A stretch of DNA of 62,924 nucleotides, counting the filler, from Asterionella formosa (Eukaryota): NCBI GenBank assembly GCA_002256025.1. It is 16 parts of 16 records of this genome, joined end to end, with 100 filler letters (N's around TTAATTAATTAA, not from the genome) between each part and the next. Parts side by side here need not be neighbours in the genome. Positions count along the whole stretch, not along the records: positions 1 to 16,141 come from NKIB01005081.1; 15 more parts are not named here. One strand, 5' to 3'. The notes below the pieces were generated by a model, which was not told the DNA's origin, did not search any database, and saw nothing but the letters and a program-made list of their open reading frames with translations. A program made the position numbers and the translations under genes. This document shows positions 2,160 to 60,483 of this stretch, one piece after another (the stretch's first letter is position 1; every line of letters starts with the position of its first letter).

Positions 2160-2965
2160 TACCAAACAAGATTCATTGTACATGCAAGAGAGAATGAAAG
2201 TAAATAATTGTAAGTAGAAAGTCAGTAACGGTACTACCAGGTTGACTGCTACCGGTAGTACATGCATTTTGGCATTGAAAATAGATGCTCTGCTATTATT
2301 ATAAAATATATCATATAAACGACCGGTATAATGAAGAATAATAGCTATGTATAACTATTCTATATTATTCAAAAACGCAAGTGCACAAAAAGCGGGAGGA
2401 TGGCTGGTCGAGAAGTCAGAGGTTCATAGCGGCACAAGAACAACAAATTCATATTACCGGTATAGCTATGAGTCAGCTATACCCTGTTTGCTTAGGTTAC
2501 ATGTTAATTTTATATGAAGCGGTCTCATAGAAATCGTTACCAGTATTTCAGTGGTTGCAATAGGATTGTGGATGGGTAACCTTGGCCAACTTTTACATAT
2601 CACTTGATCACTTCACAAACTTACAGAATGTTCTTCGCATTTCACACATGTGGAAAGGGGTGGGGGCTACAAAGTTTCGTTGAAAGTCTATCATGACCTG
2701 TAAACCTCTAGCTATCATATACATCAAGTTACAAATTTGCAATCTGCAAGTGTCTGCAAATTATGTTCCTGGTCATCATGGTTAAACTTGGATACTGCCA
2801 CTCAAGTTTTACCAAAATAGAATGCCACCACCAGTGAGCAATTCAAGTCAAAATTGCAAAATCCTTCTATAAGAACAAATATTCACACTGGACGTGCTTG
2901 ATAACCTCATCTGCTTCATCATGATGGCAATATCCAGGGAAACAATAAATCGAGCCAGCTCTTGG

Positions 2966-3973
2966 CTACTCAATTGTTTCCATTGTATTCATATGATTTG
3001 TCAAAAGCTCCAATGCCTTTAGTGTCTGCTGTTGCACTATGCTTAAACTAAGCACACGTTGCTCCAGCAGGATCAGTTCTTCACGAACATGTTTCTGTGC
3101 TAATCCTTTATCATATTTGGCATGACCTTCAGGATAGTGAGATTCTCCAACAATCATGACCTTTTCGTCTTCTTTTAATGCTGCAATGGCATCACAAAGG
3201 ACAGCAATAATTAAGTTGACAACCACAAAGGAGGAAATAATAACAAACGCCAAAAGCGGGAACCATGACCAAGATCTAGCTGTCATGAGTTCCCGGGAAA
3301 CTGTCGAGAAATCATCCAATGTCATGATTTGGAATAGTGTAAAGAAGCTCAGGTCCAATCTTCCAAAATAGTTGTCAGTCGTTTCTCCGTCTGCATAAAG
3401 AGTCCCAAAGAGTTGGGTAAACATGACGGCGAAAATATAGAAAATCAATAATAACAGTAATCCAATAGCTGCCATTCTTGGCATGACACCAAAGAGAGCT
3501 TCAACCAGATTTTTCATCACCTTCATTCGTGTGACCAAGCGAAGTGCACGGAAAATCCGAAAGGCTCGAATAATTTGAATGGATGCAAAGGACCAGGACA
3601 TGATGATAATGAGGAAATCAAAGAGCAGCCAACCGTCCAAAAATAGGTGCAGTCCATGATAGATGAGCTGCATGGCAAGTTCCAGTGTAAAAATGGATAG
3701 AAAGACAGTATCGACAATATCAAACGCGTGGCTCACGGCTATACTTTCTGACACAACATTAAAGGTCGCGATTCCCATCATTAATGCGTTGATAGCAATG
3801 AACACTATCACACCAAGCTGGACTCGTTCATTGTTGACGCATGCGCCACAAAAGTTTCGACATTGTTGGACTGCTCGAAAAGCATTCTGTGTGGTTGATA
3901 TATTTGCTTCGTCGTCTCGTTCAGAAGAGGAATGTGACTCGACTTCGACTTTGTTCATATTTCTTTCGTTCAT
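2966..3973 (-). CDS. Single-domain (6TM) voltage-gated cation channel, BacNav-like / diatom EukCatA type
   Basis: S1 (VIVFIAINALMMGIATF), S2 (FLSIFTLELAMQL), S3 (GWLLFDFLII), Arg-rich S4 (IRAFRIFRALRLVTR), S5, pore helix and filter TLFQIMTLDDFST (3302-3322), S6 (FVVVNLIIAVLCD), C-terminal coiled coil. Confidence 0.92.
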   Translation of the reverse strand: MNERNMNKVEVESHSSSERDDEANISTTQNAFRAVQQCRNFCGACVNNERVQLGVIVFIAINALMMGIATFNVVSESIAVSHAFDIVDTVFLSIFTLELAMQLIYHGLHLFLDGWLLFDFLIIIMSWSFASIQIIRAFRIFRALRLVTRMKVMKNLVEALFGVMPRMAAIGLLLLLIFYIFAVMFTQLFGTLYADGETTDNYFGRLDLSFFTLFQIMTLDDFSTVSRELMTARSWSWFPLLAFVIISSFVVVNLIIAVLCDAIAALKEDEKVMIVGESHYPEGHAKYDKGLAQKHVREELILLEQRVLSLSIVQQQTLKALELLTNHMNTMETIE

Positions 3974-4899
3974 GCGGTTGTCTGCAATTTTGACGCCTGT
4001 TGTCTTCGGTCCTTGCTGCCCAGAATCTATTGCCTCTGTTTCGGGTTCAGTGCTTGTGAAATTCGTTCTTTGATGGAACCTCCACCGTTGGAAGAACCGG
4101 TCTACCGGTACTCTACTGCCGACTTGTTGTTAAGAGGCGTTGACGAGAGAAGTAATGGAAGTCCTACGAGAGAAATAAGTCAAGAAGCAAGCCAAGCGAT
4201 AGTCGAATAAGTAGAATCCAGTTGTTAGTCGCTGCTACCCGTAAGTATATTATGGTGGTCTGATGTTGGTCTTTGCTTGCCTCCTATACAGGTAGCCCAG
4301 CTACTTTATCACTAATCCGTGTTAGGGTCACCATAACTTAAATTTAGCTAACGGTTCTTTTTTGTACATATTCCGGTATGAATATATTGATGAGTGTATG
4401 GTAGACTGGTATTATAGGTGTGTCCTGTACGTACAAACTAATTACCGGTACCGGTATCCATGTTAACGACTGAGCTGCGCATGCCAGGATTAAGAACAAA
4501 CACGCATTGTTGCACCCCATGATCAATTCCTAAAGTACACACAAGGAACGAAGCATCGTCGATAAATTGGCTGGGCGACCTTCATTGGCGTCGCTTCCCA
4601 ATGGCGTACGTTGCTGTCAAGAAGGTACGAGAACGATCGATCATTGTGTTGCCTTATTACATCAATGCCAGAAGAAGCTGTGAGCGAGCGACTTGTGTGT
4701 GTTGCGCACCTTGCTGATTGTGATGGAGCTACCTGACGGCAGGGACTGGCAGCACTGAACTTGACCTTGGCTACTGTACCGAAAGTTGTGCCGGCGGAGT
4801 GTTGCACAAGTATCCATAACTAATAACTCAGCACCCCTCTCATTCTCCTTTCAACATAGGTTCAGTTTCAGTTTCACCGACTTTGATTCATCGCACACA

Positions 4900-6084
4900 A
4901 TGATCCGTTCGACAGTACTCGTACATGGAAAGGTGCATCGTACAAACGAGCTCGAAATCTTGACTACGGCCCAGCCAGTTCAGAAAACGAATAAAAGCGA
5001 ACGCCAGGCTCGGAATGATAGATGGAATCAATCGATAGAATCTACGGCAATCACAACCCCTGAAAGTAGTCGCGAATCGGACCACTCTGGTCCGACAGAC
5101 CAAATTGAAATCAACAACAACAGGAAGTGGACCGTGAAGCGATTCCGAACTCTCTGCGGTACCCTTGTCAATCATGCTCAAGTTCAGAATTGCGTTGTCT
5201 GTCTCATTCTTCTCAATGCCATCATCATGGGAGTGGCGACCTTCAGTTTTGTGACGGACAGTGCAAACATAGCAAGCGCCTTTGACACTACGGATTTGGT
5301 ATTTCTGATCATCTTTTCGGTGGAATTATCGTTTCAACTTGTATATCACGGATTCCGTCTCTTATCGGATGGGTGGCTTGTCTTTGATTTTATCATCATC
5401 GTTCTATCTTGGTCTCTATCCTCCCTTCAAGTGGTCAGAACATTTAGGGTTTTTCGAGCACTACGGCTCATTACGAGGGTACAAGTTCTCAAGAACCTGA
5501 TTGCTGCGCTTTTCTCGGTTGGACCGAGAATGGCTGGAATCACAGCTCTCCTTCTGCTCATTTTTTATATTTATGGGGTCATGTGTACGGGCCTCTTTGG
5601 AAGTCTGTTTGTCGACGGCGAAACGGAAGATGACTACTTTGGAAGGTTGGACAAGACGTTTTGGACTCTCTTTATCATGATGACATTGGATTGGTCCAGC
5701 GTTTCTCGGCAAGTTATGGCGGTATACAGCTGGGCATGGGTCGTCTTTGTATCATTTGTAATGGTATCATCATTCATTGTGTACAATTTGGTTGTTGCTG
5801 TTGTTTGCGATTCAGTTGCAATTATTGAAGCGCAGGGGAGGGACAATGAAACAGAAAACGTTCAACTTGCAGAGCAACGAAACTTGGAGCATGTCCGCGA
5901 CCTCAGTAAACGATTGGATATTCTAGCGATGGAACAAGGACTTATTCTGGAGGCTTTGTTGATCGCTTTGGATAAGATTGGCGTGGACACTCCACAAATA
6001 ACTTCTTTGTTTGCAGGAGATGGTAACGACAATGACCCCGTTGCACCACGATTTGATGAGAATCAAGCCACCACACGACGATGA
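4900..6084 (+). CDS. Second single-domain voltage-gated cation channel, BacNav-like / EukCatA type
   Basis: First in-frame ATG at 4900; S4 VRTFRVFRALRLITR, filter TLFIMMTLDWSS (5683-5700), S6 FIVYNLVVAVVCD, C-terminal coiled coil; clear paralogue of 2966-3973. Confidence 0.92.
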   Translation: MIRSTVLVHGKVHRTNELEILTTAQPVQKTNKSERQARNDRWNQSIESTAITTPESSRESDHSGPTDQIEINNNRKWTVKRFRTLCGTLVNHAQVQNCVVCLILLNAIIMGVATFSFVTDSANIASAFDTTDLVFLIIFSVELSFQLVYHGFRLLSDGWLVFDFIIIVLSWSLSSLQVVRTFRVFRALRLITRVQVLKNLIAALFSVGPRMAGITALLLLIFYIYGVMCTGLFGSLFVDGETEDDYFGRLDKTFWTLFIMMTLDWSSVSRQVMAVYSWAWVVFVSFVMVSSFIVYNLVVAVVCDSVAIIEAQGRDNETENVQLAEQRNLEHVRDLSKRLDILAMEQGLILEALLIALDKIGVDTPQITSLFAGDGNDNDPVAPRFDENQATTRR

Positions 6085-6348
6085 GACGATGATTGTGGTG
6101 ATGGAAATCCCAGGAAAATCAAGACAAAGTACAATTTTAGGAGCACTTGGCAAATCATACGGTTTGTGTTGACGGAAACTCGAGAAAGTCACGACTGTTT
6201 TTATAATGACGTTAAATAGTCAGCACTGCTGCTGCTGCTTTGTAAAATGAATATTTATATCTTTTCTTAATTACTAATTTAGGAAATAGAGGCGCGAATA
6301 TTCCTTGCACGAAATTTCAAATTGCTTAAAAGCAAGAAAAAAAATAGT

Positions 6349-8530
6349 CTACGACAAATCGAAGACAAATGGGTTTTTGCCTTCTCCCACTGATACTTTC
6401 ATGGGCGGACTGATGCCACCTTTTCGAATCTGAAGAGCGATCAAGTTGGGCGTTTTGGAATATGGAACATACGTTTCCGCATCATACCCGTTGCCTTGGT
6501 TGGCATGAATGTAAATGACGGGTTTGCCTAGTTTCCTGATATCGTCGGCAACTTCAGCAAAAAAGTCTTGTTGCTGCTGACTTGGTCGAGCATTCCCCAT
6601 GAGCACCACCGCGCGGAAGTTATTGTAGTTCGCGAGTTGTTCCTCGACCCATTGGACATTCTTGGCAAGTCGCTCTCTCCAGCTATCATTGTCAAACATT
6701 CGACCTCCAACCAAGTGAAGGCCAATGAATAGGACACCACTGTGTAAAAAGCAAAAGTTAGCGTCATTTCCAAGCTGGTGAGTCACTTGAAAATTTTGCT
6801 CGAAATTCTCTTCAAAGTGATTCAAAAAACGCTGCCAATTTTCAATGGCAGCTACGGGGATGGGGCAGTTGTTATAATCTTCCGGTCCCGGCAACACAAA
6901 GACAGGGACGGGACTAGTTTTCAAAAAGAGTCCCGCTCTGGAGTAAGCGGTCTCTGGACACATGGTGATGGAAGCATCTTGGACATTTCCCAAATGGACC
7001 ACAAAGGTGGCGTCACCGGAAAGGGATGCCAGGTCCGATTGAAGCTTTGTTTCTCCGCTCAAGTCATATGGAACATCGCCAGTGACATAAAACGTCACAC
7101 CATTAGGTCCCAAGTTAGTTGAGGAAGCACTACTGCTGTTTTGGTCGTTCTTGTTGTGGCTCACGACACCAGCCACAATGGCGATGATGCAAACAGCAAT
7201 AGCAACCACGAGACAAATGCGTCGTCGCTTTCGAGCCTTTTCGATACTCTGGGGTCCGCGATGCTTCATGAGAGGTGGAAGAGACGGTAACGAGTTTCCG
7301 TTCGACTGAAGGTCCACATCTTTCCAAATACCGTGTAGATTGGTAGTCTTGGATGGAGATGGTGATTCCTTTTTGCCGCTGGAGAAAATATTTCCCTTGA
7401 AGGAGGGAAAATTAGCTCCAAATATCTTGGGGGAACCATAATTCTTGTCACCATAAGGGCTGCTCCAAGACATGTTTCNNNNNNNNNNNNNNNNNNNNNN
7501 NNNNNNNNNNNNNNNNNNNNNNNNNNNNNNNNNNNNNNNNNNNNNNNNNNNNNNNNNNNNNNNNNNNNNNNNNNNNNNNNNNNNNNNNNNNNNNNNNNNN
7601 NNNNNNNNNNNNNNNNNNNNNNNNNNNNNNNNNNNNNNNNNNNNNNNNNNNNNNNNNNNNNNNNNNNNNNNNNNNNNNNNNNNNNNNNNNNNNNNNNNNN
7701 NNNNNNNNNNNNNNNNNNNNNNNNNNNNNNNNNNNNNNNNNNNNNNNNNNNNNNNNNNNNNNNNNNNNNNNNNNNNNNNNNNNNNNNNNNNNNNNNNNNN
7801 NNNNNNNNNNNNNNNNNNNNNNNNNNNNNNNNNNNNNNNNNNNNNNNNNNNNNNNNNNNNNNNNNNNNNNNNNNNNNNNNNNNNNNNNNNNNNNNNNNNN
7901 NNNNNNNNNNNNNNNNNNNNNNNNNNNNNNNNNNNNNNNNNNNNNNNNNNNNNNNNNNNNNNNNNNNNNNNNNNNNNNNNNNNNNNNNNNNNNNNNNNNN
8001 NNNNNNNNNNNNNNNNNNNNNNNNNNNNNNNNNNNNNNNNNNNNNNNNNNNNNNNNNNNNNNNNNNNNNNNNNNNNNNNNNNNNNNNNNNNNNGCGTCTG
8101 ATCCGTAGTTGATCGTTTCTTCTCTGTTGCGTCCACGCGATGACGAAAAGGAGAAACTCTTTTTTTCTTCTGGATGAGGGAGACTTGATCCAGCTCGTGA
8201 CAATCTGTCATTAAAATCTTCCTGATAACTAATGTCCATTTGACGTTGTGCCGCTCGATCTGCTGCTGCCGCCACCGCAGTCATTGTTGCCTTTTGTGAA
8301 TCGCGCTGGAGCTGCTGTGGGTCGGCCTCGTACTGGTTCCACCGATCGGGATTCGAAAAGGCAGAAGAAGGAGGACCGCTACTTGCTGTTGACCCAAAGG
8401 CACCACTGGGAGGGGGGCGTCCATTGCTGTTTCGTGGCGACGGGGAGACAACTGCCGGTTCCGAAAGTCGTTCCTTGACAGCCGATGGGTCGGGGCCCAT
8501 CAATTCATCAAAGTCGTTGTCCATCATCAT
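6349..8530 (-). CDS. Type II membrane protein with C-terminal calcineurin-like metallophosphoesterase fold (degenerate motifs); spans an assembly gap
   Basis: Low-complexity N-terminus (MMMDNDFDELMGPDP) above the gap; below it a basic patch + TM (RKRRRICLVVAIAVCIIAIVAGVV) then FYVTGDVPY, FVVHLGNVQD, VFVLPGPEDYNNC. Joining the two parts into one gene is an inference. Confidence 0.65.
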
Positions 8531-30855: not shown

Positions 30856-31750
30856 TTGTTCTTGAGAGTGAGCTGTGTATAGTTATGTGGAGCCAGAAGT
30901 GACGCATCCATTCTTTTCTTACATAAGGTCTTTTTTGTTGTGGTAGAATGGTACAGAACGAACGACCGGCTGATAAAGAATGAAGAAGCACCAACGTTAC
31001 TCAATGGGGACAATATTTCACAGGTTCATTTCGACAAGAGCAGAAGTGCCATGGATGCACATCATCCTGTATTTCCGAGCTCGAGATAATTGAATGTGGT
31101 AACTACCGGTACTGTACATGATGTTGTACAGTTACTCGAGAATTCTGTAGTCCCCACCTACCCATCGATACCGGTAGTCAGTCAACTCTGAAACGAGTAC
31201 ATACGGTACCATGTAAACATATTAAATGTGACGGCAGGTGACGGTTTGTCAAGATTTAGTACTGCGTGCATATTAGTACAGTCGAACTAATCTATCTTGA
31301 ATTTTATTCCAGCCAAAATCCCGTATTGAAATGCTGTGAGAATTTGAGCAGCATTGATTGCCAAGAACTATATCAGCAAACCAAGGTAAATATTTGAATG
31401 GAGAATGTTCTAAGTAATCAATATTTCAATGAAGGAAAGGTATATATGCAATGCAGATAGCATTGAATATTCACGATTGTTCTACTAGTAAGTGAGTGGA
31501 GTTGAGTTGTCAGTTGAGAATTGAATGCTGTCTAACAACACAATGAATATCAATATACAAATTTGGGAAGAGAACCTTAATAATTGGTCATGTGAACGAT
31601 TACAAGATAGATCAAATAAGCTCACAATAAGGTGGGATTAGAACAGAAGAAGGTTTTAATACACTGAGCTTGTCTAGAAAGAGCTAGCATTGCAGTCAGA
31701 CTGCAGAAGAATTTAACACGCTTGCAAGCGGATCAACTTCGTTTTGCAAC

Positions 31751-32372
31751 ATGACTGAAGACAAAGGTGAGACCATTCGCCTTGTGAAGTTTGATGGCGA
31801 GGACTCCAATTGGCATGAGTGGAGTGTGAAGACACTTGCACTAGCCAAGACAAGAGGATTCAAGAATGCCTACATGAAGGATACCAATCCATGCAGCGAT
31901 GCTGTCTACGAGCCTACAGACAAAGACGATGTCAAGAAGATCTACGAGATGAACGATCGCGCATACCGGCTCCTGATTATGAGTTGCACTGGGATTGCGT
32001 TTGGTTTGGTTAACCAAGCCAAGACAAAGAATCATCAAGACGGCGATGCATTCCTTGCTTGGACCTACCTCAAGGCTCGCTATGTTCCTAATGCTACTAC
32101 AAGTGACTTAATCCAACTGTCAGGACAGTTCAACAAGTGCATCTGTGAGGGGAAGACGCAAGACCCAGAGGAGTGGTTCATCCAACTCGAGTTGTTGAGG
32201 AATCGAATGGCGACGATTGATTCCGCTTACGAAAAGAAGGATCTCGAGATGATTGCCCACATACTTGACAAACTACCTAAGGAGTACTCAGAAGTGGTAA
32301 CAATGGTTGAGGCTATGCCCTCCCTAACACTAGAAGACCTTAAGGCCAAGATACGCGCGTTCTTCAAACGCA
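31751..32372 (+). mobile_element. Ty1/Copia gag ORF (intact to the scaffold end); LTR/leader probably ~31320-31750
   Basis: KFDGEDSNWHEWSVK, AFLAWTYLKARY, DPEEWF..LE, HILDKLPKEYSEVV are typical of Copia gag; LTR boundaries not resolved. Confidence 0.85.
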
Positions 32373-33127
32373 NNNNNNNNNNNNNNNNNNNNNNNNNNNN
32401 NNNNNNNNNNNNNNNNTTAATTAATTAANNNNNNNNNNNNNNNNNNNNNNNNNNNNNNNNNNNNNNNNNNNNATATTCATTTATGACTAGTGGTAGTCTA
32501 CCCGTATATATACCAGTTCATTTGCAGGAAGCAATCATACACCATCTGGCTCAGTCTGTCAACAGTCACCGTCCTTTAACCAATACCGCGTCCGATGGGA
32601 ACTGTGTCGTGATCATTTAATGTGACTTTACCAGGGGATAAAATTCATCATTAATGATGCAACGGAAAAGCCCTGCTGGGGATGAATGACGAACCTGCAG
32701 ACTGCCTGGTGATTGGGGCGCGGAGCAAATATTGGGATACAAAACAGAAATTGGCTTGCTGCTAAATGAAAGACAAAAGTTTCGAAAGAACGATTATACC
32801 ATTCCAGGTCAGATATTATCATTGCAACATAGATAAGGTATGACATCATGGGTCCTGGTGGATTAGACTACTAACGTAAAGCGATTACACGTTAGTGACG
32901 AAGTATCATATCAATTGGTAAATCCAAAATTTTCTATTATTCTTCCATTGTACAGAAGGACCCTGGTGGATGCCGATGCACGGATCCTGATTTCGTTTTT
33001 TTGTTTGTGCAATGTATTGATATGGAGGCTAGTTTCTTGGAAATGCACCACGCTTGACAGGAAGAAGGAAACAACTGCAATGAATACCATTACGCTTGAG
33101 AAGAAAAGGCAAGAACCGAACTGAAAA

Positions 33128-33410
33128 ATTATTCCAAAAATTATGCGTCATACTTATGTCGAGGAGCTTTCTTACGAGCATTACTTGCAACTTGTACAGT
33201 TCCAGAATTACTGGAAATGTTCTGGGTAGAAATATCATTCTTACGATGACAATGACATTCGTAACTACTTCATTAAGCACTTCCCAGCAAAAGTGATGGA
33301 TGCCTTTGATTCCGTGAAACACATTTAAGGCAGATCTGTTTCAGTATCTTGTGTTGACAAGGGAAGGATGCAACTACGTGGACATTGATGTCGTCCTTGA
33401 CACCATCCAA
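33128..33410 (+). pseudogene. GT32 (OCH1/SUR1-like, DXD sugar-binding) glycosyltransferase pseudogene fragment
   Basis: Across a stop and frameshifts: IIPKIMRHTY ... WKCSG*KYHSYDDNDIRNYF ... KADLFQYLVLTREGCNYVDIDV (DXD at 33381-33389). Confidence 0.75.
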
Positions 33411-34874
33411 GACGTCACAATTTCGTCCCCCCACATCTCTCAGTTTTCGCTCCCTTTGATATTGTCTGCTACTANNNNNNNNNNNNNNNNNNNNNNNNNN
33501 NNNNNNNNNNNNNNNNNNTTAATTAATTAANNNNNNNNNNNNNNNNNNNNNNNNNNNNNNNNNNNNNNNNNNNNTCATTAACAAGCCTGCTTGATAAGAT
33601 GGCGATTACCAGGAGTTAATTTCAGTTTTGACTTTTGTTCAGCCGACTTGACTTTTCGTATCTTGTTCCCAAGCTTGCAACAATTATTCGAGTTTCTTGT
33701 ACATCGACGCACTCTTCGTAAAATCAAAGGGTTTAAAGATCCGTTCCCTGGTAATCTAAAATACTGGTATAGTCTTCAGCACATTTACCAGTATATATAT
33801 AATACAGTAGAACCTCCCAATAACATAATACACTCCCATAGGATACAGCCTGTATATAAGATACACTTTTTCAATGAAGTGTTCCCAATTTGGATATCCT
33901 TCTAAGTGGCCCTCTCTATAAGATACACTCTCTATTAGAGGCACTTGGATACAGTTTAGCTCGAAAAAGGTTATTCTGAACTCAGTATAAGATATAGTAG
34001 AGAACAAGGATAAGAGCACCACACAGCCAGTCTGCACTCAGTTTGAGCCCTTAATTTTTTCCTTGTTTTCCTTCTTTTATTCTCAAATCACTGTGGACTG
34101 ACAATCTTCAGTACCAGTTGCTTATGCATGTAATGGAAACATCAGTGTATGAACCACATCATTGTAGCGATGTGATGTGGTATCGCTTGGGATATTATAT
34201 GTCAAGAACAGTTTATGTTATAATCTTTAGTTTGTCTTTATATGTACTTAACTGAAAGGAATCTCAATCGTTTCTTGTACATTTGCTTCCATTCTTTCAC
34301 TCATACCGATCTCCAAGATTCAGACATTCTCACCATTCTCCTTCATTGGTAAAAGTTGTGAAGAGCATGTCAGAAATAAAGATAACATGTTTAAGTGTTT
34401 CCATTGATACAAAATATGCAGCTGTTATGCTTCACGATAAAAGGGATATTGTAAGAGAAGTTGCTTTTAAACTTGCCATAAGCATCGGAATTTTTCAAAG
34501 AGCCAATAAAGGAAGGAGAACATACTGATTGAAGGAGAATCGATGCAATCCATGAAAATGGTTCGCCTTAATAGTGNNNNNNNNNNNNNNNNNNNNNNNN
34601 NNNNNNNNNNNNNNNNNNNNTTAATTAATTAANNNNNNNNNNNNNNNNNNNNNNNNNNNNNNNNNNNNNNNNNNNNTGGCATTGCAGATGATTGGCTTCT
34701 TGAGTATGTTGTGGTGCCAAACATTCTTTCTCAGTAACAACGTGGTGTAGCATGGACACTGGCACGGCCACATCTTTGGGCGGCTTTTGAGCCCAGCAGT
34801 CTTCATGGTTATTTGCCAGTTGCCATGATAGCTCGCATTTAAAACGTATGGATCTGTTCAGCATCTGGAACCAG

Positions 34875-35520
34875 ATTTAATCCAGTTTAGAAGCGGTTTG
34901 TTGTTGTAACCGGGCATGAAGCAGAGGTGTACATTGACAAGGTTTGGGGGTCTGCTAGCTAGTACTACAATTGAAGGCAATTTAGTGAATGTCCTTGGTA
35001 AAGATGGGGAAGTACAAGGTGGTGGAGTTCTGGCAGCAGGACAAAGAGGGAAAAACAAGATCGGCTGCAACGGCCAAGGAACGAAATAATTGGACTTCAC
35101 TCACAGCAAAAAGAGACACAATGCGATGTTGTGGAAATGAAAACTCAAATAGCAGTAATTACCACCAGCACTGTTAGCAAGGGAATGGCACGAACAGAGA
35201 GGAGCATTCTTATTCGGTTTGCAAAAGTCCTGTGGCAACAATTTCGAAGCATTGGAAGTTACAATGGCAATGACATGATGACAGCTGAAACAAGAAACAA
35301 CAAGAATGAAAACATAGCACACAATGAAGTAGAAGGAAACAATGATCTGCAAAGCAACATGCTGGCTGGTGATCCAGACTACAATAGTAGTTTCAGCAAG
35401 ACACCAAATATGCTATTTGTTATTAGGCAGGAATGGGAGGTTGGGATTGGAGGGAGAAATCCAGAAAATCTATTTACAAGGGTCAAAAGGGGTAGAGTGA
35501 AATTTATTTACTGTCGGCAG
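34875..35520 (+). mobile_element. Crypton-like transposon 3' fragment (decayed)
   Basis: NPV*KRFVVVTGHEAEVYIDKVW and QEWEVGIGGRNP..FT..RGRVKFIYCR match the 51624-53377 element (NPVGKRLIVVNGAEAELYIDEIW; QEWEVGITGRKPARIFT). Confidence 0.75.
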
Positions 35521-36880
35521 AACCAGCAATTAGGGTAATGATGGGACAAGCTGGCATAACAGATAAACTAGCATTAATAGCGTTATCCACTAGTATGACT
35601 TGCTCCCCTTGGGGTCACATATTGGAAGCTGGGGTGGGAGTGGTTGCAGTGGTTTGAGTACGAGTGGGGCATGTTGTCNNNNNNNNNNNNNNNNNNNNNN
35701 NNNNNNNNNNNNNNNNNNNNNNTTAATTAATTAANNNNNNNNNNNNNNNNNNNNNNNNNNNNNNNNNNNNNNNNNNNNCACCTTACCCCCGCAGTACTGT
35801 ACCTGCAAGTTACTGTCATTTTTTTCAGTTTTCGAATAATTATGTATAATTACCGGTAAAACCAAAAATTACACAGAAAAAGAAAAGACTTAAGTTGTAG
35901 CAAATTTACCAAAACATGGTTGACCTTGTATTGGCATACATAGCTTCATCGTTAAGGTTGCGAATCCGTGCTCTCGCCAATACAAGGAAAAAGGCTCTTT
36001 TTTTAATAGGTATTTCACGAAATGGCCGGAATTTTTTCCTGAACGAGGTATGAATAGTTTCATAGTTTCTCTGAAATACTTTTGGCAAAAAAGAATTGAG
36101 GCAAGTTCACAAAAGACTACTACAGTACTACTGTGCTGATCACAGAATTTAGCGGTACTTAAGCTAAAGGGACCTCTGGGTCCCAATAGTTAATAATTCC
36201 TAAAACCGACCAATTCACCATGACAAAAGGCGCTATCCAAGCGGCCAACCAAGCAACGAAAGAACAAATCATAGATGTGTGACAGAGCCAAAAGATATTA
36301 ATGAAATCCTACGGAAAGAGAATGCAGAAAGAGGAGGAGGAGATGATGGAAAAGCAAACAAAGCTTACTGCAGGAGCAGTGGAAAATGGGGATTGCATGG
36401 ATGTCGATTTGGCATTTGCCGCAAACACTAGACACAGTTTCTGGGGAATTCAAAGCAATGGAATCAACACAACACAAACCATGCAAAGACAGTATCAAGA
36501 GTAAAGAAAAGAAGAAGTTTAACACCTTTTTCACTATCATAGTGAGCGCTATTACATTGCAAGAAGCAGACGAATACGAGAATGGCGGTATGCCAAACAT
36601 TAACGGGAAAGAAGAAGACAGAGAAATGAAGAAGACACTGATGCAGAAATTTCGCCAGAGCTGGATGTGCTGCTCAAAGCAATAAACTTTGTGATAACGA
36701 AGACTATGAAGACAGAGACAAAAACAATGACTTGGAAGCCCTGGAATCACCAATTGTTATGGAGACTTCAAATTGAATCANNNNNNNNNNNNNNNNNNNN
36801 NNNNNNNNNNNNNNNNNNNNNNNNTTAATTAATTAANNNNNNNNNNNNNNNNNNNNNNNNNNNNNNNNNNNNNNNNNNNN

Positions 36881-37575
36881 TCATACCGGTCAACTTCTCG
36901 TATTCGTGTAGAAGTTGCATACGAAATTTCTGCATTTGCACCTCCCAGTATTCACCATACTTGTCCTCTTTCCAAGCATATTCCACTCCTAGGTGTTTCT
37001 GTAGAATACCCTGCTCGGTAATATTAAAATCTTCCTTGATAACATTTTTCATATACTCCACTGCACTTGGAGTCCCACATACAATACCGTCATCCACGTA
37101 ATTAACAAGTAGACCATCAATTTGTCCATCCTTGTTCCGGTGCATAAATAACATAGGGTCGATCTTGCTCTTCGTCATACCTGGTTTATTGGTGACACAT
37201 TTCGCAAACGTCCTGGACCAGCATCGTGGAGCTTGTACTATCCCGTACATAGCCTTCACAAGCTTGCAAACATGTGTATCGGAATCGACTCCGATCAAAC
37301 CTTGAGGGGGCTCAATATAAATGTCCTCATCGACGTCAGCATTTAGAAATGCTGCTTCCACATCAATAGCCTCCGCTCGCCAACCGTTGTACATCGTCAC
37401 TGGGAGTACCGTTTTGATTGTCGCATCGCTTGCAACTGGAGCAAATGTCTCAGTAAAATCGACACCTGGGATTTGCTCATATCCCTTCACGACCAATCTT
37501 GCCTTGTAAATGGTCTTCCCGGTTAACACATCTTCTTTAATTCGAAACACCCATCTCGTTTTTAGTGTTCGCTTC
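36881..37575 (-). mobile_element. Ty1/Copia reverse transcriptase fragment, open frame
   Basis: RWVFRIK, YKARLVVKGYEQIPGVDFTETFAPVA, IDVEAAFLNA, KAMYGIVQAPRCW, YVDDG, HLGV; upstream it switches to non-coding DNA at a TTAA (~37576). Confidence 0.95.
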
Positions 37576-37982
37576 TTAAGGTTCCTGCATTTGAACCCCT
37601 AGCTCGAGGTAGGGTTAAAAAAATAATATTAAGTCAGAGTAGTCAAACATAGACTTCTTACGAGTAAAAAGTAAATGTATATCGCTAAACGGAGCTTTCA
37701 CCAATACACACCCTTTCCACATGCTTAAATACAGTAATTTATCAAAGTAGGGGTATAGGTCAACGCTATATATCGTCAGGATATAGGATCTGGCGAGAAA
37801 CTGCAGAAAGGAACTTCGGTTTTTTAACTATGCTGAAAATAGTGGATTTTACCGGGCTAACTCGTTTATTTGGCCTAGTAAANNNNNNNNNNNNNNNNNN
37901 NNNNNNNNNNNNNNNNNNNNNNNNNNTTAATTAATTAANNNNNNNNNNNNNNNNNNNNNNNNNNNNNNNNNNNNNNNNNNNN

Positions 37983-38984
37983 TCCTCAAATACCTATGAG
38001 GCATTCGCTTCCACCCCACCAAGGTGGGGACAGTTACAAATGCCCCAATCCGACACCGAACTATCAAAGCCAGTCCTGCTTGGTCTTTGGGACTGCCCCC
38101 CACACGTGACCGTGTGAGTGGATGCTTGTCAAATCCGCCTCCCTCATACCACACTGTGCGGGCCCCCGACGGACGAGTCAAGTTCCGTCGGATCCCACAC
38201 TCTCTCTCCAAAATGCATGCTTTCACTACCTCAGCCAGTACCTTTGGTTCCAGGCTCTGCCATCCAGCACCCAAGTACCTCTCCACAATAGACACCGGTG
38301 CATGGGGGAGCGCATAGCGTTTCAGCCAGCGCGGACCCCCCGAGCACCATGTCCATTTCTGACTTCGGAATGGTCTTAGGACCAATTCCTGAAGCCAGGT
38401 TTTGAGACCCGAGGCCTTGGCATAAGCTCTGGCCCGTCGGGCACCCGCCAAGGCACACATTGGCAACATCCGTGCCTCCTTCCACAGGCCTACTGATGGC
38501 ACATCCCCTGCCCTCCTGGCTCCAATGCTAGCCCTAAGGCATCGGTTCAGAAGAACCTGCATTTTGTCCGTAAGGTGACGGTTCATACCATACAGCTCAG
38601 CCCCAAAAAGGAGGCGGGGGGCAACTACTCCTGCAACAGTCAGCAAACGCATGGCCATTGGTACCACCGGGCACCGTAGAAACGGTACCAAGGTGGCAAC
38701 TGTGGCCCGCCCTTGCTTGACTCTATGGGCCACCATAGACGAGATAGACAGACCTGGTGTCATGAGGACACCCAGATACATATATCTGTCCACAACAGGG
38801 AGTGGAAGTCCCTCCAGTTCCAGTCCGGCCACATCTTGTCCAGGGACAAGCGGTTCGGTGGCCGGGTCTGGGTCTGGCGGTAGGAATTCCATCAGCCCAC
38901 ACTTCCCTATGCCCACACTCATCTCGTTAGCTGTAACCCAGTTGGTAACGTGCGTACAGAACCGTTTGGCCGCCTCCAGGGAGG
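37983..38984 (-). mobile_element. Non-LTR (LINE-like) retrotransposon ORF fragment, RT C-terminal/thumb region
   Basis: Open across the contig; MSVGIGKCGLM (domain-6-like), VDRYMYLGV (domain 7 YLG), PRLLFGAELY, downstream RCRIG; GC-rich. Confidence 0.8.
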
Positions 38985-40504
38985 NNNNNNNNNNNNNNNN
39001 NNNNNNNNNNNNNNNNNNNNNNNNNNNNTTAATTAATTAANNNNNNNNNNNNNNNNNNNNNNNNNNNNNNNNNNNNNNNNNNNNCCCCCCCCATCTCATC
39101 AAGAATGGAGATAGAAAAGAGAAAGAAATCAGCAGTTGTCAGAGCACGGGTGGAAAGGAATCAAGTGAATGAACAAGGGCCTGATGAAGATGATCAATAA
39201 AAGCATATCCCATCATAGTCATGCAGTGTGCACGCAAAGTTGCAAAAGGTAATGCCTTAGTGAAGTGATCAGCTAGATTGCAAGTAGATGAAAAACGGTG
39301 AAATGATACATGGGCATGACGGACATGTTCTTGGAGAGTCTGCATTTTAGTGGCAATATGACGAACATTGCGTGTAAGTTTCCCTGCATGAGCAATAATT
39401 TGGGCAGCAGAATTATCTTCACCTATGGGGACTGGGGCGTGGTATGGCAGAGAAATATCTTCCATATAGATGCGGAGGAGCAATAAAACATGTTTAGACA
39501 ATGTGGTAGCAGCATCTAATTCAGCCTCAGTTGTATTGTAAGATGTAGTACTTTGTTTGCGACATAGAGTGAAAATTGCAGTGCCATTGATCAAAATGAC
39601 TCTTCCAGGGTAAGCAAGGCGATCAAGAACAGCACCAACAAAGTTGGCATCAGCGAAATCCTGAGTAAGCGGAGCCATGCATGGAGTAGACTTATTGATA
39701 GTTTTTGGAGGAAGATGCCAAAATGTTTAGTCCTTATCCAAGTGATGAGCCTCATTACTAATGACAGTTGGTTCCCCAAGCCAGGGAGCTGCTTGACTGA
39801 TATAAGCACCAACTGAAAAAATACAACCACGGCACGTGACAGCTTATGATTGAAAGCTAATGTAATATCAGGATATCGTTGTAGTTATTTGGAAATTTGT
39901 AAGAGACCCGCAAAATGGATGATCCCAGGAGCATTTTGATATTGCGCAAGGCGTTGTACCACAGTTTGAATGTCCAGTTGCTTCCATTGAAACAGATTTC
40001 GGAATTGAACAAGGAGAGTGCGATATTCAAAACCATATGACTTAATAGCGAGTTTCATTTCCACATCTGAGTAGGGGAAACAACTTGCTAAAGCTTTGTC
40101 ATGTTGAATGCCAGCAATCATGGGAACAAGATTGGTAGAACAAGATTGGTAGAAGATGGGGTTTGGTGATTCCAAGCAGCCCCATAGACATAAGTGAGAA
40201 CTTCATGGATCATATGAGTTTGGTCTATGGTCATGCAGTGTGGACTGCTGAAAAGAAATTGGAGACCCAAAAATGTGAGACAATACCCACATTGTGAACC
40301 TACCAGTGAGATTCAAGGTGACTAACTATATGGTTGTAGGTCTCTAAAGAGCGTGTTCCAATGAGAATATCATCCGTTGCTTGAGCCATAATGACATGGT
40401 GATTATTAATGGTCCCTTGATAGATACATTGATCTGCCCGGTTTTTGGTGAGACCGAGTTGTCAACAGATAACTTTGTCAATATGTTCGCCCCACTCGTT
40501 GAAA

Positions 40505-54475: not shown

Positions 54476-56418
54476 AGTAGGGTGAGTCAATTAACGAAAC
54501 TGACAAGCTTAATAGGAGTTTTTAAGGGGTATGTTAAAAAGAGTGATTATAGTAAAGTAAAAGTAAATAGATACAAACATAGAAGAACAGTAACACAGGT
54601 AGAGGCAACCATCAGTGTCTGACATACAGACATTCACGATGGATATAGTCTACTATTGATTTATAAAACATGTTTTCTTGTCGATCTCTGACATACTAGC
54701 TAGTATGCAGCAAAATTGTAAGTGAACTTTGGGTTGTAGTATGTTGTGATAGTTGCATGATGGGAATGCGACCACTCTTCTAACAGCTCGTTGCATGTGT
54801 GGATGTGATTTTAAAATAGAATGTTGGTGACTAGATATCATGACAGCCATGAAAATGTTTGTTTGATTATCTAGTCATCTGATTTATTCTGTTACCATCC
54901 ATGCCTAGTAGTATAGTGTCATACTTCTTCGTTTTTGTCACCAATTCAAGCCCAATTGATTGCCAACAACTATCATCGATTTACCACCCTGTTCTTATTG
55001 CTAGAAAAACCCCTTCGAATGTGTTCGTCTATTAATTACAGACTTCAAGTTTTAAACTCTGGCTGGCGCTTTTTTGATTGTTGACTTTATTCAAGAAGCT
55101 TTCTGGATTCTCTATCACCATGTCATGCAAATTTGTCACTGCGGGTCCACCATTTGTTGCAAGCTGATAAAGCAGGTCGGGTAGTTGAAAATTCATACAA
55201 ATAACATGATTCTTTGANNNNNNNNNNNNNNNNNNNNNNNNNNNNNNNNNNNNNNNNNNNNTTAATTAATTAANNNNNNNNNNNNNNNNNNNNNNNNNNN
55301 NNNNNNNNNNNNNNNNNAGCTATCACTTATCACATACTGGCTTACAACTGGTGGGACCATTTTTCTTTTGATAGATCCCATCATCTGCTGCTTGTTATGC
55401 TTGTTCGAGCGGATCGGTGAGTACAACAATGAAACACTGGATGACTATTTATTGAATTTCTGATTTCATTTCTTTCATGATCTATTTCGATCACTTCCGT
55501 TGTTATTTGACATTCCATACTGTCATTTTGGTTTGATTGTATCTATGTACACAAAGTCTGATGTAGGTATCAGTGCCTAATCTTTGAAGAAGTATTGTTG
55601 TTGATCACATTTGTTGACCATGGTGTCAATATTGCCGCCAAGCAATGCTTTTTGTACTAATGCGCTTTGCTACATTTCTACTTCGAGTTCGTATTGATAG
55701 CTGGAACGGGAATTGCTGCTATGCACCGGCAATTTCCACTCTAGCTATCGTCTTGCCATTCGGGTATTTCTAAGTAATTTTTAGGCTTTTAAGTAATTTC
55801 TTGAGTAATTTTTGTTTTAGGGTAAAATGGGGCACATCGAATTTTTCGGCAATAAAATTGCCGATTTTAGCATGACAACCAGAATAACGGTAATATGCAT
55901 AGAGATGGTACAACAAACGTAAAACACACAAGAATGATTGTAACATGCAACGTCAACGAAAATTGAACATGATGTTTGGAGCAACCAAAGTATGAAATGC
56001 GATGTCATAAGTAGCATCAAATGAGAAATAGAAAAGATTGTTTTGGGATAGAAATGATGTAAAAAATAAGAGTTTCAATGGAGATGTATGCATTGTGACA
56101 TTGTAGTACTTACACAGGCAATTGAATTTCCATCACCACACAATCAACGACTGAAATAAGAAGGGAAAAAGCTGAACCCAATCTTGACCTGCATGGTTAT
56201 GTAGTGTAGATCTCCTTGCTGTAACCATGCACATCGCTGTAGGAGTTTGACACAAGTTGCAGTCCTTCCGCCCACAGTCCTCATTCCTCCCATCAAACAA
56301 CCCTGATCATCATTCCATNNNNNNNNNNNNNNNNNNNNNNNNNNNNNNNNNNNNNNNNNNNNTTAATTAATTAANNNNNNNNNNNNNNNNNNNNNNNNNN
56401 NNNNNNNNNNNNNNNNNN

Positions 56419-56695
56419 CGATTTTTGCTGTTTGTCGTGATGATCAACTTGGCGGGGCTCACAGCTGATGGATGTTGCACGATAAGTGTGTTGCTGAGGG
56501 TCGCCTTTCTATCGTAGTAAACAGGTGTCTTTTTTACGAGAGTGGGATCAATAGATACAAACATGGTTAGAATTGAACGGTTGATCACAGATCACTGCAG
56601 GATCATAGCTGCATCCTCACCTGTGCAGTAACCAACATAGGTGTCCACAATGAGCCAGTCATGGTGAGACCAACTAAGAGTAAAAGTCCATTCAT
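56419..56695 (-). CDS. 5' fragment of a putative secreted protein (exons 56695-56621 and 56528-contig end)
   Basis: MNGLLLLVGLTMTGSLWTPMLVTAQ signal-like exon, 92-bp intron GTGAGG...CTAAC...AAAG, next exon open (TPVYYDRKATL) to the contig edge. Confidence 0.45.
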
Positions 56696-57608
56696 GTCGC
56701 ATCGATCACTAAAGTGTTTGATTCTTTGGGTTTAAGTTTCGCCTTGGAGCCAACAGTTGAAACACTCGCTCAGTGAGCCGATGTACCGATACCGGAACCG
56801 GTTCTAGTATGGAAAAATAATCCTATGTTGATGCCTCAGAAGCTGGAATAAGGGCGACAAGATATCGGGGATACCCGTACCGGTAGTCTATGTACTCTAT
56901 TCAACCTCCCGTGGTCTCATAAATGAAAGTGGATCGGTATCTTTTTTCTTTTCAGCATGGTACGTAGTGTATGTAATTCAAGGGGCAATTAAATTTCGGA
57001 AATTTTGTCGAATAGAATTTTTTTTGATCTGTGTATCCCAACAAAATTTCTCAAATTATATGTTATTCATTACCGTTTATATTTATATGGACTGACTCCA
57101 GAGTCCGTTCCAGCTAGCGGTAATTCGCCTCCACATACCGGTAGCTAATGCAGTTACCGGTATGCCGGTATATTCCCGGCATATCGTTTGTTATGGAAGT
57201 CTGTTTCAGGAAAAGGCATTTGCCGGGTAGGCTTAAAAAGTCGAAACTAATACAGATTGTACTGTGAGGGAGTAATCGAAGTATCTTGACAGCGAGACCA
57301 AAAGCATTGTTGGGGAAACAAGTGTAGGGGCTTTGATCTTGCTCTGCTGATGTAGATATCAAGTTGTAGATCCACCTATATACATACCGACGGAAAGAAT
57401 AGAGGGCTTTAATATTTTTNNNNNNNNNNNNNNNNNNNNNNNNNNNNNNNNNNNNNNNNNNNNTTAATTAATTAANNNNNNNNNNNNNNNNNNNNNNNNN
57501 NNNNNNNNNNNNNNNNNNNTCCTGTCACCACTTTCCTCGGCTACAATATATCATACCCTTGTATACCATTCATAACAACAACAACGACATTGCTCATCAT
57601 CCATCATT

Positions 57609-58508
57609 ATGCCTTCTGATGCAGGCACGCTAGTGACTACTGGCATCGCCTTGGGGGTGCTTCATGTCTTGACTGGTCCAGACCATTTATCCGCCATTTG
57701 CACTCTATCCGCCAGTGTATCCTCCTGTCGGACTTCCTTTGGTTTAGGGGTACGATGGGGCGTAGGACATTCCATTGGATTGTTACTGGTAGGAATTATT
57801 CTGATCGCCATTTTGGACGCATCGTCAGGTACGCTGGAAGTGCCTGAGCCAGTGTCAAGGTCGTTCGAAGCGTTGGTTGGGGTATTTATGATTCTTTTGG
57901 GTTTCTATGGGTTGGCACTGGCGCAAAGGAAACGACGTGATGCCAACAACAGCAGTGCTCAAGACATTGCAGTCCATGAAAGGACTAGTATCGAGCCAAA
58001 CAGTGTGTCTGAGGTGGACGTCGATGATGATCCAGAAGATGCATTGGTGGTGAAAGTATCAGCTGACGACGATATGCCAGGATCAGGTCGACCACAGCTT
58101 TCAGTGGACGCCGAACTAAATCAATGTGGTCCGGTAGTAGAAGCACATGCTCATGAGCATTTTGCATGTTGCCTATTCTTCACAAGCAAACTGTCCACCA
58201 CTTCCATGGCCCTATTAATGGGCATTGTGCATGGATTTGCTGGCCCAGGTGGGGTATTGGGTGTCATTCCTGCAGTTCAAATCAGAGATGCAAAGTTGGC
58301 CACATTATACCTTGGTACTTTTTGCATAACATCCACATTTACCATGGGGTGCTTTGCAAGTCTTTTTGGAGTGATGAGTAGATGGGTGGGGGTCAAAAGT
58401 GGGTGGGAGTTTAAGGTTGAATGCACCTCTGCATGTTTGAGTATAGTGGTGGGAATTACTTGGTTAGTCTTGACAGCTATTGGCAAGTTGGATGTTGTCT
58501 TTCCTTGA
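57609..58508 (+). CDS. Nickel/cobalt transporter, NicO/UreH-like
   Basis: LHVLTGPDHL (HxxxxDH Ni motif), WGVGHS, His/acidic loop (HAHEH), GIVHGFAGPGG, about 6 TMs. Confidence 0.88.
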   Translation: MPSDAGTLVTTGIALGVLHVLTGPDHLSAICTLSASVSSCRTSFGLGVRWGVGHSIGLLLVGIILIAILDASSGTLEVPEPVSRSFEALVGVFMILLGFYGLALAQRKRRDANNSSAQDIAVHERTSIEPNSVSEVDVDDDPEDALVVKVSADDDMPGSGRPQLSVDAELNQCGPVVEAHAHEHFACCLFFTSKLSTTSMALLMGIVHGFAGPGGVLGVIPAVQIRDAKLATLYLGTFCITSTFTMGCFASLFGVMSRWVGVKSGWEFKVECTSACLSIVVGITWLVLTAIGKLDVVFP

Positions 58509-58759
58509 AATATCATGGTANNNNNNNNNNNNNNNNNNNNNNNNNNNNNNNNNNNNNNNNNNNNTTAATTAATTAANNNNNNNNNNNNNNNNNNNNNNNN
58601 NNNNNNNNNNNNNNNNNNNNATAGATGATACAATAGACAGTAGTACCTGGTACCAGTACTCACACACAAGTAGACTCGAACATGCATATTCATATATGAG
58701 TATATCTATCATGTCTTCTAAACTATTGACCAAGACTGCTGTGTTCCATCAGTTGTCTG

Positions 58760-59330
58760 GCACTTGGGCTGACATGGACTAGAACTCTTGTATCCTACTA
58801 TATGATTCTTCAGATCATTTTCGGCCTAACTCATGGTTCCTTGAGCATTTGGTTGCGGTTCTCAAGGCGGATGATTGTCAAAGTGCTTCGGACTAAGAAT
58901 GAAGATGCCATTGTTCGACTACCTACTGCAGCTGAAACCACTTTATTTGCATCCATGATTCATAAGAAGCAAGTACCCTTCGATAATTTTTTTTGTTGGG
59001 GAGCAATGATGGATGGTCTGAAACTCAACCTGCAGTGACCTGGAAATGAAAGGCAGCAAAACTATTTCTACAATGGGTGGACTCATGAACACTATGTGAC
59101 AAACTTATTTTTTTCTCCTGATGGAAAAATTCGTTGCTCTTATTGTAATGCACCAGGTGTTCTCCACGACTCCACCATGGCAATTTGGTCTTCGATCTAC
59201 TATGATCAAATTGAAATGGTTTACAGGGATACAGGTATAAAAGTAGTTGTGGATTCAGCATTTGCAACTAAGAATCAAATGCAATGCTGAAATCCCATGA
59301 AAATAATGTGGATGGAAATGGTAATCCTTG
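58760..59330 (+). mobile_element. PIF/Harbinger-type (DDE_Tnp_4-like) transposase pseudogene fragment
   Basis: FGLTHGSLSIWLRF, GAMMDGLKL, QNYFYNGWTHEHYV, FSPDGKI, NAPGVLHDS, KVVVDSAF with stop and frameshift. Confidence 0.85.
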
Positions 59331-60276
59331 ACAAAGATTTGGCATTGGATTACCAATCTTACCAATTCTGTCTATTTGCCCAATATATACATACCGAAGC
59401 TTGAATGAATCATTTAAAATGTGCAGAAGATGGTCCCAAATTGGGACGCTAGCTATGAAACAAATCTTGATATAGTCAAAGATACTTCATTGAGAGACCA
59501 ATGCTGAGACAAGGTAGTGGCGCAAATGAAGGATTTTGGATGGTGGTAACAGTAAGGCAGGTACAGGGCCATGTACTTTCTGAAGTTCCTGACAATTGAT
59601 ATATGTTATATTTATGTAACCNNNNNNNNNNNNNNNNNNNNNNNNNNNNNNNNNNNNNNNNNNNNTTAATTAATTAANNNNNNNNNNNNNNNNNNNNNNN
59701 NNNNNNNNNNNNNNNNNNNNNATTGTGGAATAATTTGATGGATGGATCGTGAAAGCGTGTTGGTGCAGCAAGTGGGTGAGCGTTGGATGTTGTGTACCCA
59801 GGTACCGGTAAAAATATGTAGAAGTAGCTATGATTTTTGGACCGCAGTCTAATTTTTATGCTCTGACTTCAAATTTAGTACATCCCATATATAATGTAGC
59901 GTATAGTACTATTTTGAGAATGCTGATGTACCAGTACACTACCGGTAACGGAGTAAAAAATAAGGAAATTGCAGGAGAGGACCTCAATATTTTCTCAATC
60001 TGGTGGCTGGCTTCTTCGTCTTGCGATGAATCTTGACGGAATCTTCACAATTGGACCTACTCGACTCCATCTGCTTCGTTTTCTTCTTATAAGAAACTTT
60101 ATCAGTTCTATGCGAAGGCCGACGTCAATATAGGCAGTGAATCATACGACAATATCGTCATGCTGAGAAGAATAACCTGTACCAGGTACACAACTATGAA
60201 CATGAATGCATCAAGCATGCAAACACATAGCCCAACGAAATAATTCACTGTACCAGGTACCAGGTACCACTTAAAA

Positions 60277-60483
60277 ACTGTAAGCCACCGCTATTTTACT
60301 CTATCTTTCGACTAAAAATATTTATGTAATTCAACGATCAAAACTTGACGTAAGTACAAAGCTTATGTTAGACAATGCTCTCTGCTATACTATTAAGGAA
60401 TCAGTTTTGATTCAGTGTATCTAGCCATGAAGAAATAATTTTTCCAAAGTCACTAAGATTATTGCATAGCGGTGGCTTACAGT
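60277..60483. mobile_element. 207-bp MITE-like element with perfect 18-bp TIRs
   Basis: ACTGTAAGCCACCGCTAT (60277-60294) and its reverse complement ATAGCGGTGGCTTACAGT (60466-60483); right end reads CAGTG; no TSD seen. Confidence 0.75.

Follow-up and report, generated by a model that had tools for sequence, protein, structure and literature searches.

A 62,924-nt stretch of DNA from the diatom Asterionella formosa (GenBank assembly GCA_002256025.1), which joins 16 parts of as many records and is referred to here as the window, carries two neighboring genes, P0001 and P0002, that very probably represent an ancient, conserved and co-regulated pair encoding two subunit types of the EukCatA family of voltage-gated channels. 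Co-assembly of their products into a heterotetramer is plausible, and the complete reading, in which a conserved and co-regulated pair also builds a mixed channel, falls just short of an even chance. Both open reading frames (ORFs) are intact, single-domain and divergent, and the whole pair is contained in an N-free stretch (2160-7478):

2966..3973, minus strand: coding sequence (CDS) of the long-filter EukCatA subunit P0001 (335 aa), a single-exon ORF
4900..6084, plus strand: CDS of the short-filter EukCatA subunit P0002 (394 aa), a single-exon ORF
3974..4899, no strand: divergent intergenic region, candidate bidirectional promoter, 926 bp from ATG to ATG, delimited by the ORF starts

This layout agrees with a sequence-only reading of the window, which had described paralogous genes with six transmembrane segments (6TM) diverging from the gap-free region 3974-4899 and had placed both ORFs as above. 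The two proteins align with 136/273 identities (50%, E 9e-93) and contain one Pfam Ion_trans domain each (PF00520; residues 54-270 of P0001, E 7.7e-36, and residues 97-311 of P0002, E 2.2e-33), and their N-termini are unrelated in the alignment. The start of P0002 is supported by its relative P0126 (410 aa, 84% identity, query cover 100%), which shares the first Met. No further copy of either gene was found by tblastn across the 62.9-kb window, and a scan of viral contigs found no relative. The adjacency of paralogs that are 50% identical is beyond chance; on its own, it could be accounted for by an old duplication.

Absence of one filter residue, as in P0002, corresponds to absence of the 'beacon' position, one residue after the high-field-strength site (+1) (PMC10120453, in part). 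The functional segments of the two proteins were located as follows:

3521..3574, minus strand: S4 voltage sensor of P0001, IIRAFRIFRALRLVTRMK, from sequence and alignment
5431..5484, plus strand: S4 voltage sensor of P0002, VVRTFRVFRALRLITRVQ, from sequence and alignment
3302..3322, minus strand: P0001 selectivity filter TLDDFST, residues 218-224, by gapless alignment to TQEDW of Cav3 domain II
5683..5700, plus strand: P0002 selectivity filter TLD-WSS, residues 262-267, shorter by one and lacking the 'beacon' residue
2990..3091, minus strand: long C-terminal helix of P0001, candidate tetramerization coiled coil, from the AlphaFold2 model and shared Leu/Gln
5890..5979, plus strand: C-terminal helix region of P0002, candidate coiled coil, aligned with the P0001 helix from sequence only

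The near-identical S4 segments (RxFRxFRALRLxTR) noted in the sequence-only reading were read in both proteins, and the S4 Arg positions are invariant in the family alignments A1 and A3 (P0001 R139, R142 and R145 in A3). The contrast that it drew between TLDDFST and a TLDWSS shorter by one residue also held, with both the family alignment and HMMER placing a one-residue gap in P0002. The P0001 filter has an Asp at the high-field-strength site, a second Asp at the beacon site and a Phe replacing the Trp of the family, a replacement absent from that earlier reading. Sequencing run X5, whose organism is 95-99% similar, has the P0002 filter TLDWAN rather than TLDWSS (S266A and S267N; window positions 5695 and 5699), so close relatives differ in the final two residues of the filter. 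The core of the C-terminal helix is common to both clades in A1, where L335, L342 and L350 are invariant and Q346 and L353 nearly so. Both proteins match the sequences of the Cav3 domain II, CavAb, NavAb and NavMs structures with E values of 1e-37 to 1e-50. The AlphaFold2 model of P0001 (45-row alignment; mean predicted local distance difference test score, pLDDT, 81.5) contains the S1-S6 helices, a pore composed of a P1 helix (206-217), an unstructured TLDD (218-221) and a P2 helix that begins with F222, and a C-terminal helix (289-334) with pLDDT of 74-94 in 10-residue blocks from residue 291. A Foldseek search with this model gave NavMs, CavAb and NavAb as the best matches, with a probability of 1.00, and the predicted fold of the channel pair is that of NavAb/NavMs.

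Relatives were collected by word-index searches, which returned 970, 258 and 291 above the cut-off (the best 120 of each were used), and by an exhaustive search that gave 765 representatives at E <=1e-30. The named relatives are diatoms: Odontella aurita, Seminavis robusta, Fragilaria crotonensis, Grammatophora oceanica, Skeletonema, Thalassiosira, Nitzschia, Fistulifera and Epithemia. By sequence, P0001 and P0002 are members of the EukCatA family of diatoms; neither PtEUKCATA1 nor OsEUKCATA1 was recognized by name among the compared rows. Long and short filters were both common, first among 213 proteins and then among 316 aligned rows. The filter-length difference to which the sequence-only reading had drawn attention is real; it is not special to the window genes, being a known dimorphism of the family in which PtEUKCATA1 has TLE-WAD and OsEUKCATA1 has TLDAWAD (PMC6509283, in part). 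The EukCat family has been reported to have expanded by dispersed duplicates (PMC7335047).

A careful maximum-likelihood (ML) tree was computed for 92 representatives after exclusion of the filter columns. In this tree, 55 long-filter rows make up one side of a branch with an ultrafast bootstrap (UFBoot) of 99 and a Shimodaira-Hasegawa-like approximate likelihood ratio (SH-aLRT) support of 94, and filter length marks the deepest supported split among these EukCatA sequences. P0001 belongs to long-filter clade I and P0002 is placed among the short-filter rows; the EukCat phylogeny that the sequence-only reading had proposed to build puts the two window genes on opposite sides of the split. Rooting depends on bacterial-like sequences that are very distant and whose TLESWS members lie outside the diatom family on a long branch of 1.13 changes per column. 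Quick IQ-TREE searches were clearly suboptimal, so the conclusions rest on the careful search. A FastTree topology placing clade IIa beside IIb (support 69) was not recovered in the careful ML tree.

Head-to-head placement of a short-filter with a long-filter gene recurs elsewhere. A metagenome scan gave 263 pattern matches, of which 140 were confirmed and the best 80 kept, resulting in 79 loci with 87 EukCatA-type genes, 25 of which have at least 2,000 bp of upstream DNA. Such pairs are present in four more diatom contigs, which represent two additional lineages: a long-filter gene stands head to head with three of the seven short-filter rows that have at least 2,000 bp upstream (L016, L052 and L061), and L065, with 1,935 bp upstream, provides the fourth. 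Together with the window pair they are:

L016: ATG-ATG gap 439 bp, TMEWAD-type + CxDEWSG-type (long clade IIa)
L052: ATG-ATG gap 625 bp, TMEWAD-type + CxDEWSG-type (long clade IIa)
L065: ATG-ATG gap 599 bp, TMEWAD-type + CxDEWSG-type (long clade IIa)
L061: ATG-ATG gap 875 bp, TLEWAD-type + TLDAWAN-type (long clade I)
Window: ATG-ATG gap 926 bp, P0002 clade + P0001 clade (long clade I)

Each pair draws one gene from either side of the tree split, and the five pairs fall in three deep short-filter branches and both long-filter clades. A check for conserved pairing in other diatoms, suggested in the sequence-only reading, was therefore positive in these four contigs. Since recent tandem duplicates would be long+long or short+short, one old, retained inverted duplication is the simplest explanation. 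In Skeletonema menzelii, P0185 (TMEWAD), P0229 (CxDEWSG type) and P0262 (TLDEWAD type) lie on one scaffold according to their source names. Weak hints come from closer relatives of P0001 and P0002, at about 60% identity, that originate from contigs of equal size, namely P0010 with P0132 (59,796), P0009 and P0015 with P0131 (32,001), and P0013 with P0191 (34,521). The short+long head-to-head architecture appears to be new, as judged from main texts: the available part of the PMC6509283 text does not mention EukCatA gene adjacency or heteromers, the PMC11085791 text does not mention heteromers or heterotetramers, and the PMC7335047 text does not mention a bidirectional, head-to-head or divergent arrangement.

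Two further features of the paired genes in the metagenome loci were observed. The Skeletonema-like minus-strand genes (L065:1243, L052:4833 and L016:9516) and plus-strand genes (L065:1843 and L052:5459) start with Met-Pro-Ile (MPIAS..., MPIY...), a possible N-terminal signal common to both partners as judged from these starts; the L016 plus-strand gene starts with MAIY, and the Met-Pro-Ile start was not seen in the window pair. The CxDEWSG-type genes contain an intron inside the filter coding sequence, between C-L/M and D-E-W, at which many of the clade's database entries break off or show read-through (e.g. P0224, P0226, P0232 and P0237):

L052:3625-4722, minus strand: CxDEWSG-type gene with filter intron
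L065:125-1042, minus strand: CxDEWSG-type gene with filter intron
L016:8418-9255, minus strand: CxDEWSG-type gene with filter intron
L063: CxDEWSG-type gene with filter intron

Both window genes are represented in the same RNA libraries. Part of the stretch is present in thirteen sequencing runs, of which 12 are recorded as RNA, and four were mapped in detail. Both genes are covered by contigs of X1 (a poly-A library), X3 and X4, which derive from two studies: P0001 by contigs 2726-3749, 3725-4129, 2797-4039, 2884-3728 and 3700-4044, and P0002 by contigs 4861-5259, 5057-5756, 5230-5363 and others. Neither CDS is interrupted by contig joints, and parts of untranslated regions (UTRs) could be read for both genes:

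2726..2965, minus strand: P0001 3'UTR, to the contig limit (the true end may differ), from X1 contig 2726-3749
4510..4624, plus strand: P0002 5'UTR exon 1, from X3/X4 contigs 4516/4510-4626 joined to 4861-5259
4625..4859, plus strand: P0002 5'UTR intron, GT..AG, 235 nt, from the joint 4626>4861 in X3 and X4

The intron borders, placed by sequence, are GT at 4625-4626 and AG at 4858-4859, and the mapped material is RNA because this intron has been spliced out. RNA contigs reach up to 4129 for the minus-strand gene and begin at 4510/4516 for the plus-strand gene; if the contig ends lie close to the 5' ends, the starts of the two messages are at most about 380 bp apart. The interval 4130-4509 is without cover in the four mapped runs, which carries no weight either way. 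The P0002 5'UTR contains upstream ORFs of 4 codons (4519-4533) and of 16 codons across the intron (4601-4886, spliced), and translational control of P0002 by these elements is possible. A scan of 3900-4950 for bacterial-type promoters and terminators gave counts as in shuffled sequences, the model being wrong for a eukaryote. A tally of synonymous changes among the listed RNA-contig variants (3/6 in P0001 and 7/24 in P0002) says nothing about selection, X5 being another taxon.

The Phe in the P0001 filter belongs to a narrowly confined loss of the filter Trp. Among 316 rows, the Trp column holds W in 300, a gap in 7, Y in 1 and F, M or L in 8; the gap rows are truncated or intron-retaining gene models and the Y row is a read-through model. 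The eight F/M/L rows are all in the P0001 subclade, with Phe in P0001, P0003, P0004 and P0005, Met in P0006 and P0007, and Leu in P0009 and P0010, and its sister rows retain W (TLDAWDP and similar). Among the core columns conserved to at least 90% elsewhere, the Trp column (W 296/297) is the sole departure of the P0001 subclade, and the P0002 clade likewise departs at one such column, from A to G. P0001 is not decaying, since one specific pore position was changed and then varied. This Trp-less subclade appears to be a new variant within a known family. Two contigs that resemble transcripts, L008 and L029, represent a different short-filter lineage and have no Trp in their filters either (TL-DFAD, and TLDYVD in the alignment to P0001), so the Trp may have been lost more than once. 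In the NavAb structure, the filter Trp bonds to the filter Thr of the neighboring subunit. By analogy, an all-Trp-less tetramer would lose all four Trp-Thr bonds, and a mixture with P0002 would keep some of them.

We propose that the region of at most 0.93 kb transcribes both genes outward and that this shared promoter would supply both subunit types to one cell at one time, simultaneous synthesis being expected because diatoms are single cells. Paralogs of tetrameric channel families commonly mix, and for this reason P0001 and P0002 may co-assemble into heterotetramers. The resulting pore would be asymmetric: Asp would occupy the high-field site in all four subunits, the P0001 positions would carry a beacon Asp but lack Trp, and the P0002 positions would have Trp but lack the beacon. 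The helix core positions common to both clades and the loss of Trp in one partner make heteromers plausible as far as the alignments go. It has been speculated that native O. sinensis EukCatA channels 'may be heteromeric' (PMC8002053). P. tricornutum has three EUKCATA isoforms, and knockout of PtEUKCATA1 alone abolishes depolarization-evoked Ca2+ rises with two isoforms remaining (PMC6509283, in part), a phenotype compatible with non-redundant isoforms and equally with a need for the short subunit. A stronger version, an obligate or preferred heterotetramer older than the divergence of pennate from Skeletonema-like centric diatoms, in which the Trp-less long subunit needs a short subunit as its Trp scaffold, is unlikely. 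P0001 would then be unable to build a stable filter alone, and beacon Asp would occupy only some pore positions. If true, it would be a living case of Cav-like pore asymmetry from two co-regulated one-domain genes, the presumed step before domain fusion.

EukCatA-like proteins with two domains are also found (P0282-P0295, of which P0282 has three domains, P0306, P0321, P0251, P0134 and P0008). Two full Ion_trans domains were present in 18 of 25 multi-stretch proteins examined among the best 150 representatives, and the filters often differ between the halves, e.g. TLDEWSN + TMAEWAS. At L022:1-1890 (plus strand), a single 629-aa frame comprises a partial unit, its C-terminal helix and a complete second unit. 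Unlike TPC/TPCL channels, which have the filter motifs VNN/VND (PMC11085791), these proteins have TxxxW-type filters. They may be natural fusions toward multi-domain channels, with gene-model merges possible for the unnamed ones. Fusion of a long-lineage with a short-lineage domain was considered, as a quick tree split domains d1 and d2 of four proteins, yet the approximately unbiased (AU) test favored keeping them together, the tree that does so being better by 40.8 log-likelihood (lnL) units (p-AU 0.855).

Several observations weigh against a co-regulated pair that forms a mixed channel. With regard to the pairing, four of the seven short-filter rows with at least 2,000 bp upstream are unpaired (L042 and L043, probably one gene, L058 and L062), as are most long-filter genes in the metagenome loci, so pairing is not obligatory for the family. 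An alignment of the three Skeletonema-like pairs found no conserved intergenic block among them, the RNA contigs that bear on co-regulation are blind to start sites, strand and level, and a tree constrained to unite clade IIa with the short-filter rows (IIa+IIb) lies about 13 lnL units below the careful tree, by subtraction. The arrangement could also be a neutral relic, an ancient inverted duplication kept by chance with the two genes functionally uncoupled. Diatom genomes are gene-dense, and EukCatA paralogs also occur in tandem (L062/L066) and convergently (L071/L073), which together with the missing intergenic block would suit such a relic. Against it stand the identical orientation and short+long make-up in five contigs spread over the deep branches of the tree, whereas young tandem duplicates would unite genes of like filter length; retention over such depth without selection is unlikely, and we regard the relic as improbable.

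With regard to the mixed channel, co-assembly is a proposal here and a speculation in print, and the two-domain proteins lend it no Rosetta-stone support because, by the AU test, their fused domains do not join the long and short lineages. One short-filter and one long-filter EukCatA (PtEUKCATA1 and OsEUKCATA1), each alone in HEK293 cells, conduct robustly, with fast Na+- and Ca2+-permeable currents (PMC6509283, in part). The filter difference, linked in the sequence-only reading to a candidate heteromer, does not require one: both forms conduct alone, and the pair therefore need not be heteromeric. These currents favor two independent homotetramers, co-regulated or simply linked and each with its own selectivity or kinetics; one channel might, for example, be beacon-less and non-selective and the other carry a beacon Asp and lean more toward Ca2+, possibly in different membranes or life stages. 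The many unpaired EukCatA members agree with this arrangement, as do the retention of every other family-conserved residue in both window proteins, the complete fold of the P0001 model and the unrelated N-termini, which leave room for different targeting. Separate homotetramers do not explain why short+long genes were retained head to head within 0.44-0.93 kb across distant lineages, though co-regulated separate conductances could, and they offer no reason for the loss of Trp, a Trp-less homotetramer being unusual in the light of structural work on NavAb. We consider independent homotetramers a substantial possibility, although one toward which we do not lean.

Elsewhere in the window, RNA contigs of a neighboring gene (ORF 6349-8211, minus strand) extend past 6084 and cover the final 250-290 bp of the P0002 CDS (e.g. 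X3 5839-6600+ and X1 5794-6272), with a much higher word depth of about 200-360; the 3' end of this convergent neighbor may overlap that of P0002. Pairs of 44-N blocks, 12 bases apart, occur every ~1,101-1,102 bp in 32373-39084 and 55218-61923. No direct repeat was found behind these blocks (31500-40000 tested) and no matching tandem repeat in the window, so they look like masking or assembly artifacts.

Among known systems, the characterized EukCatA channels from diatoms, namely PtEUKCATA1 and OsEUKCATA1, resemble the pair in their diatom origin, single 6TM domain, Arg-rich S4, T-L-D/E-(x)-W-type pore loop (matched by P0002, and by P0001 up to its T-L-D-D) and C-terminal helix, and the filter of P0002 has the length of that of PtEUKCATA1 and the filter of P0001 that of OsEUKCATA1 (PMC6509283, in part). 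They differ in that the available part of the same source treats them as homotetramers and describes no gene pair, and in that P0001 has Phe where all characterized members have Trp. Bidirectional gene pairs are, like the window pair as judged by its ATGs, divergent and less than 1 kb apart, and have been reported to be conserved and co-expressed (PMC1487180 and PMC4089025, both in part). The BacNav/CavAb channels (NavAb, NavMs and NaChBac) provide the best structural matches and likewise consist of one-domain subunits; these form tetramers and have a 7-residue TLESWxx filter and a C-terminal coiled coil, for which the window proteins carry a candidate. However, they are prokaryotic and homotetrameric and are not known to occur as short/long pairs, and the window genes lie in a separate clade with other filters; the spliced 5'UTR intron and the poly-A RNA library show that the window genes are eukaryotic and not BacNav.

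Kv2 and the silent Kv subunits belong to a K+ channel family in which the T1 domain controls assembly, and their genes are not known to be paired. They offer a likeness in another respect, since the silent subunit is a paralog that is atypical at a conserved pore or gate position and works only in heteromers that include a conventional partner (PMC6279357, in part). By analogy, they could serve as a model for a Trp-less P0001 that needs P0002, the silence of P0001 being hypothetical. CatSper1-4 and the four-domain Cav/Nav channels have four non-identical domains with a beacon Asp in only some of them (PMC10120453, in part), as a mixture of P0001 and P0002 would give. CatSper needs four genes and many auxiliary subunits, and the Cav/Nav domains are fused, whereas the asymmetric pore of the window pair is a proposal. 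To our knowledge, no natural heteromeric one-domain channel of the Nav/Cav type other than CatSper is known. The four-domain Nav/Cav channels are believed to have arisen from tetramers of one-domain subunits via stages with non-identical subunits, and a conserved short+long diatom pair offers two defined cDNAs with which such a stage can be tested. P0001 also provides a natural Trp-less filter for studying the role of the conserved Trp. The pair suggests that native diatom excitability may rest on mixed channels, which would explain why, as noted in PMC8002053, currents in heterologous and native settings differ. The EukCatA family, both filter lengths (PMC6509283, in part) and speculation on heteromers (PMC8002053) are already known; the recurring short+long pairs, the Trp-less subclade of eight rows and the RNA-contig cover of both genes, with a 5'UTR intron spliced out for P0002, appear to be new.

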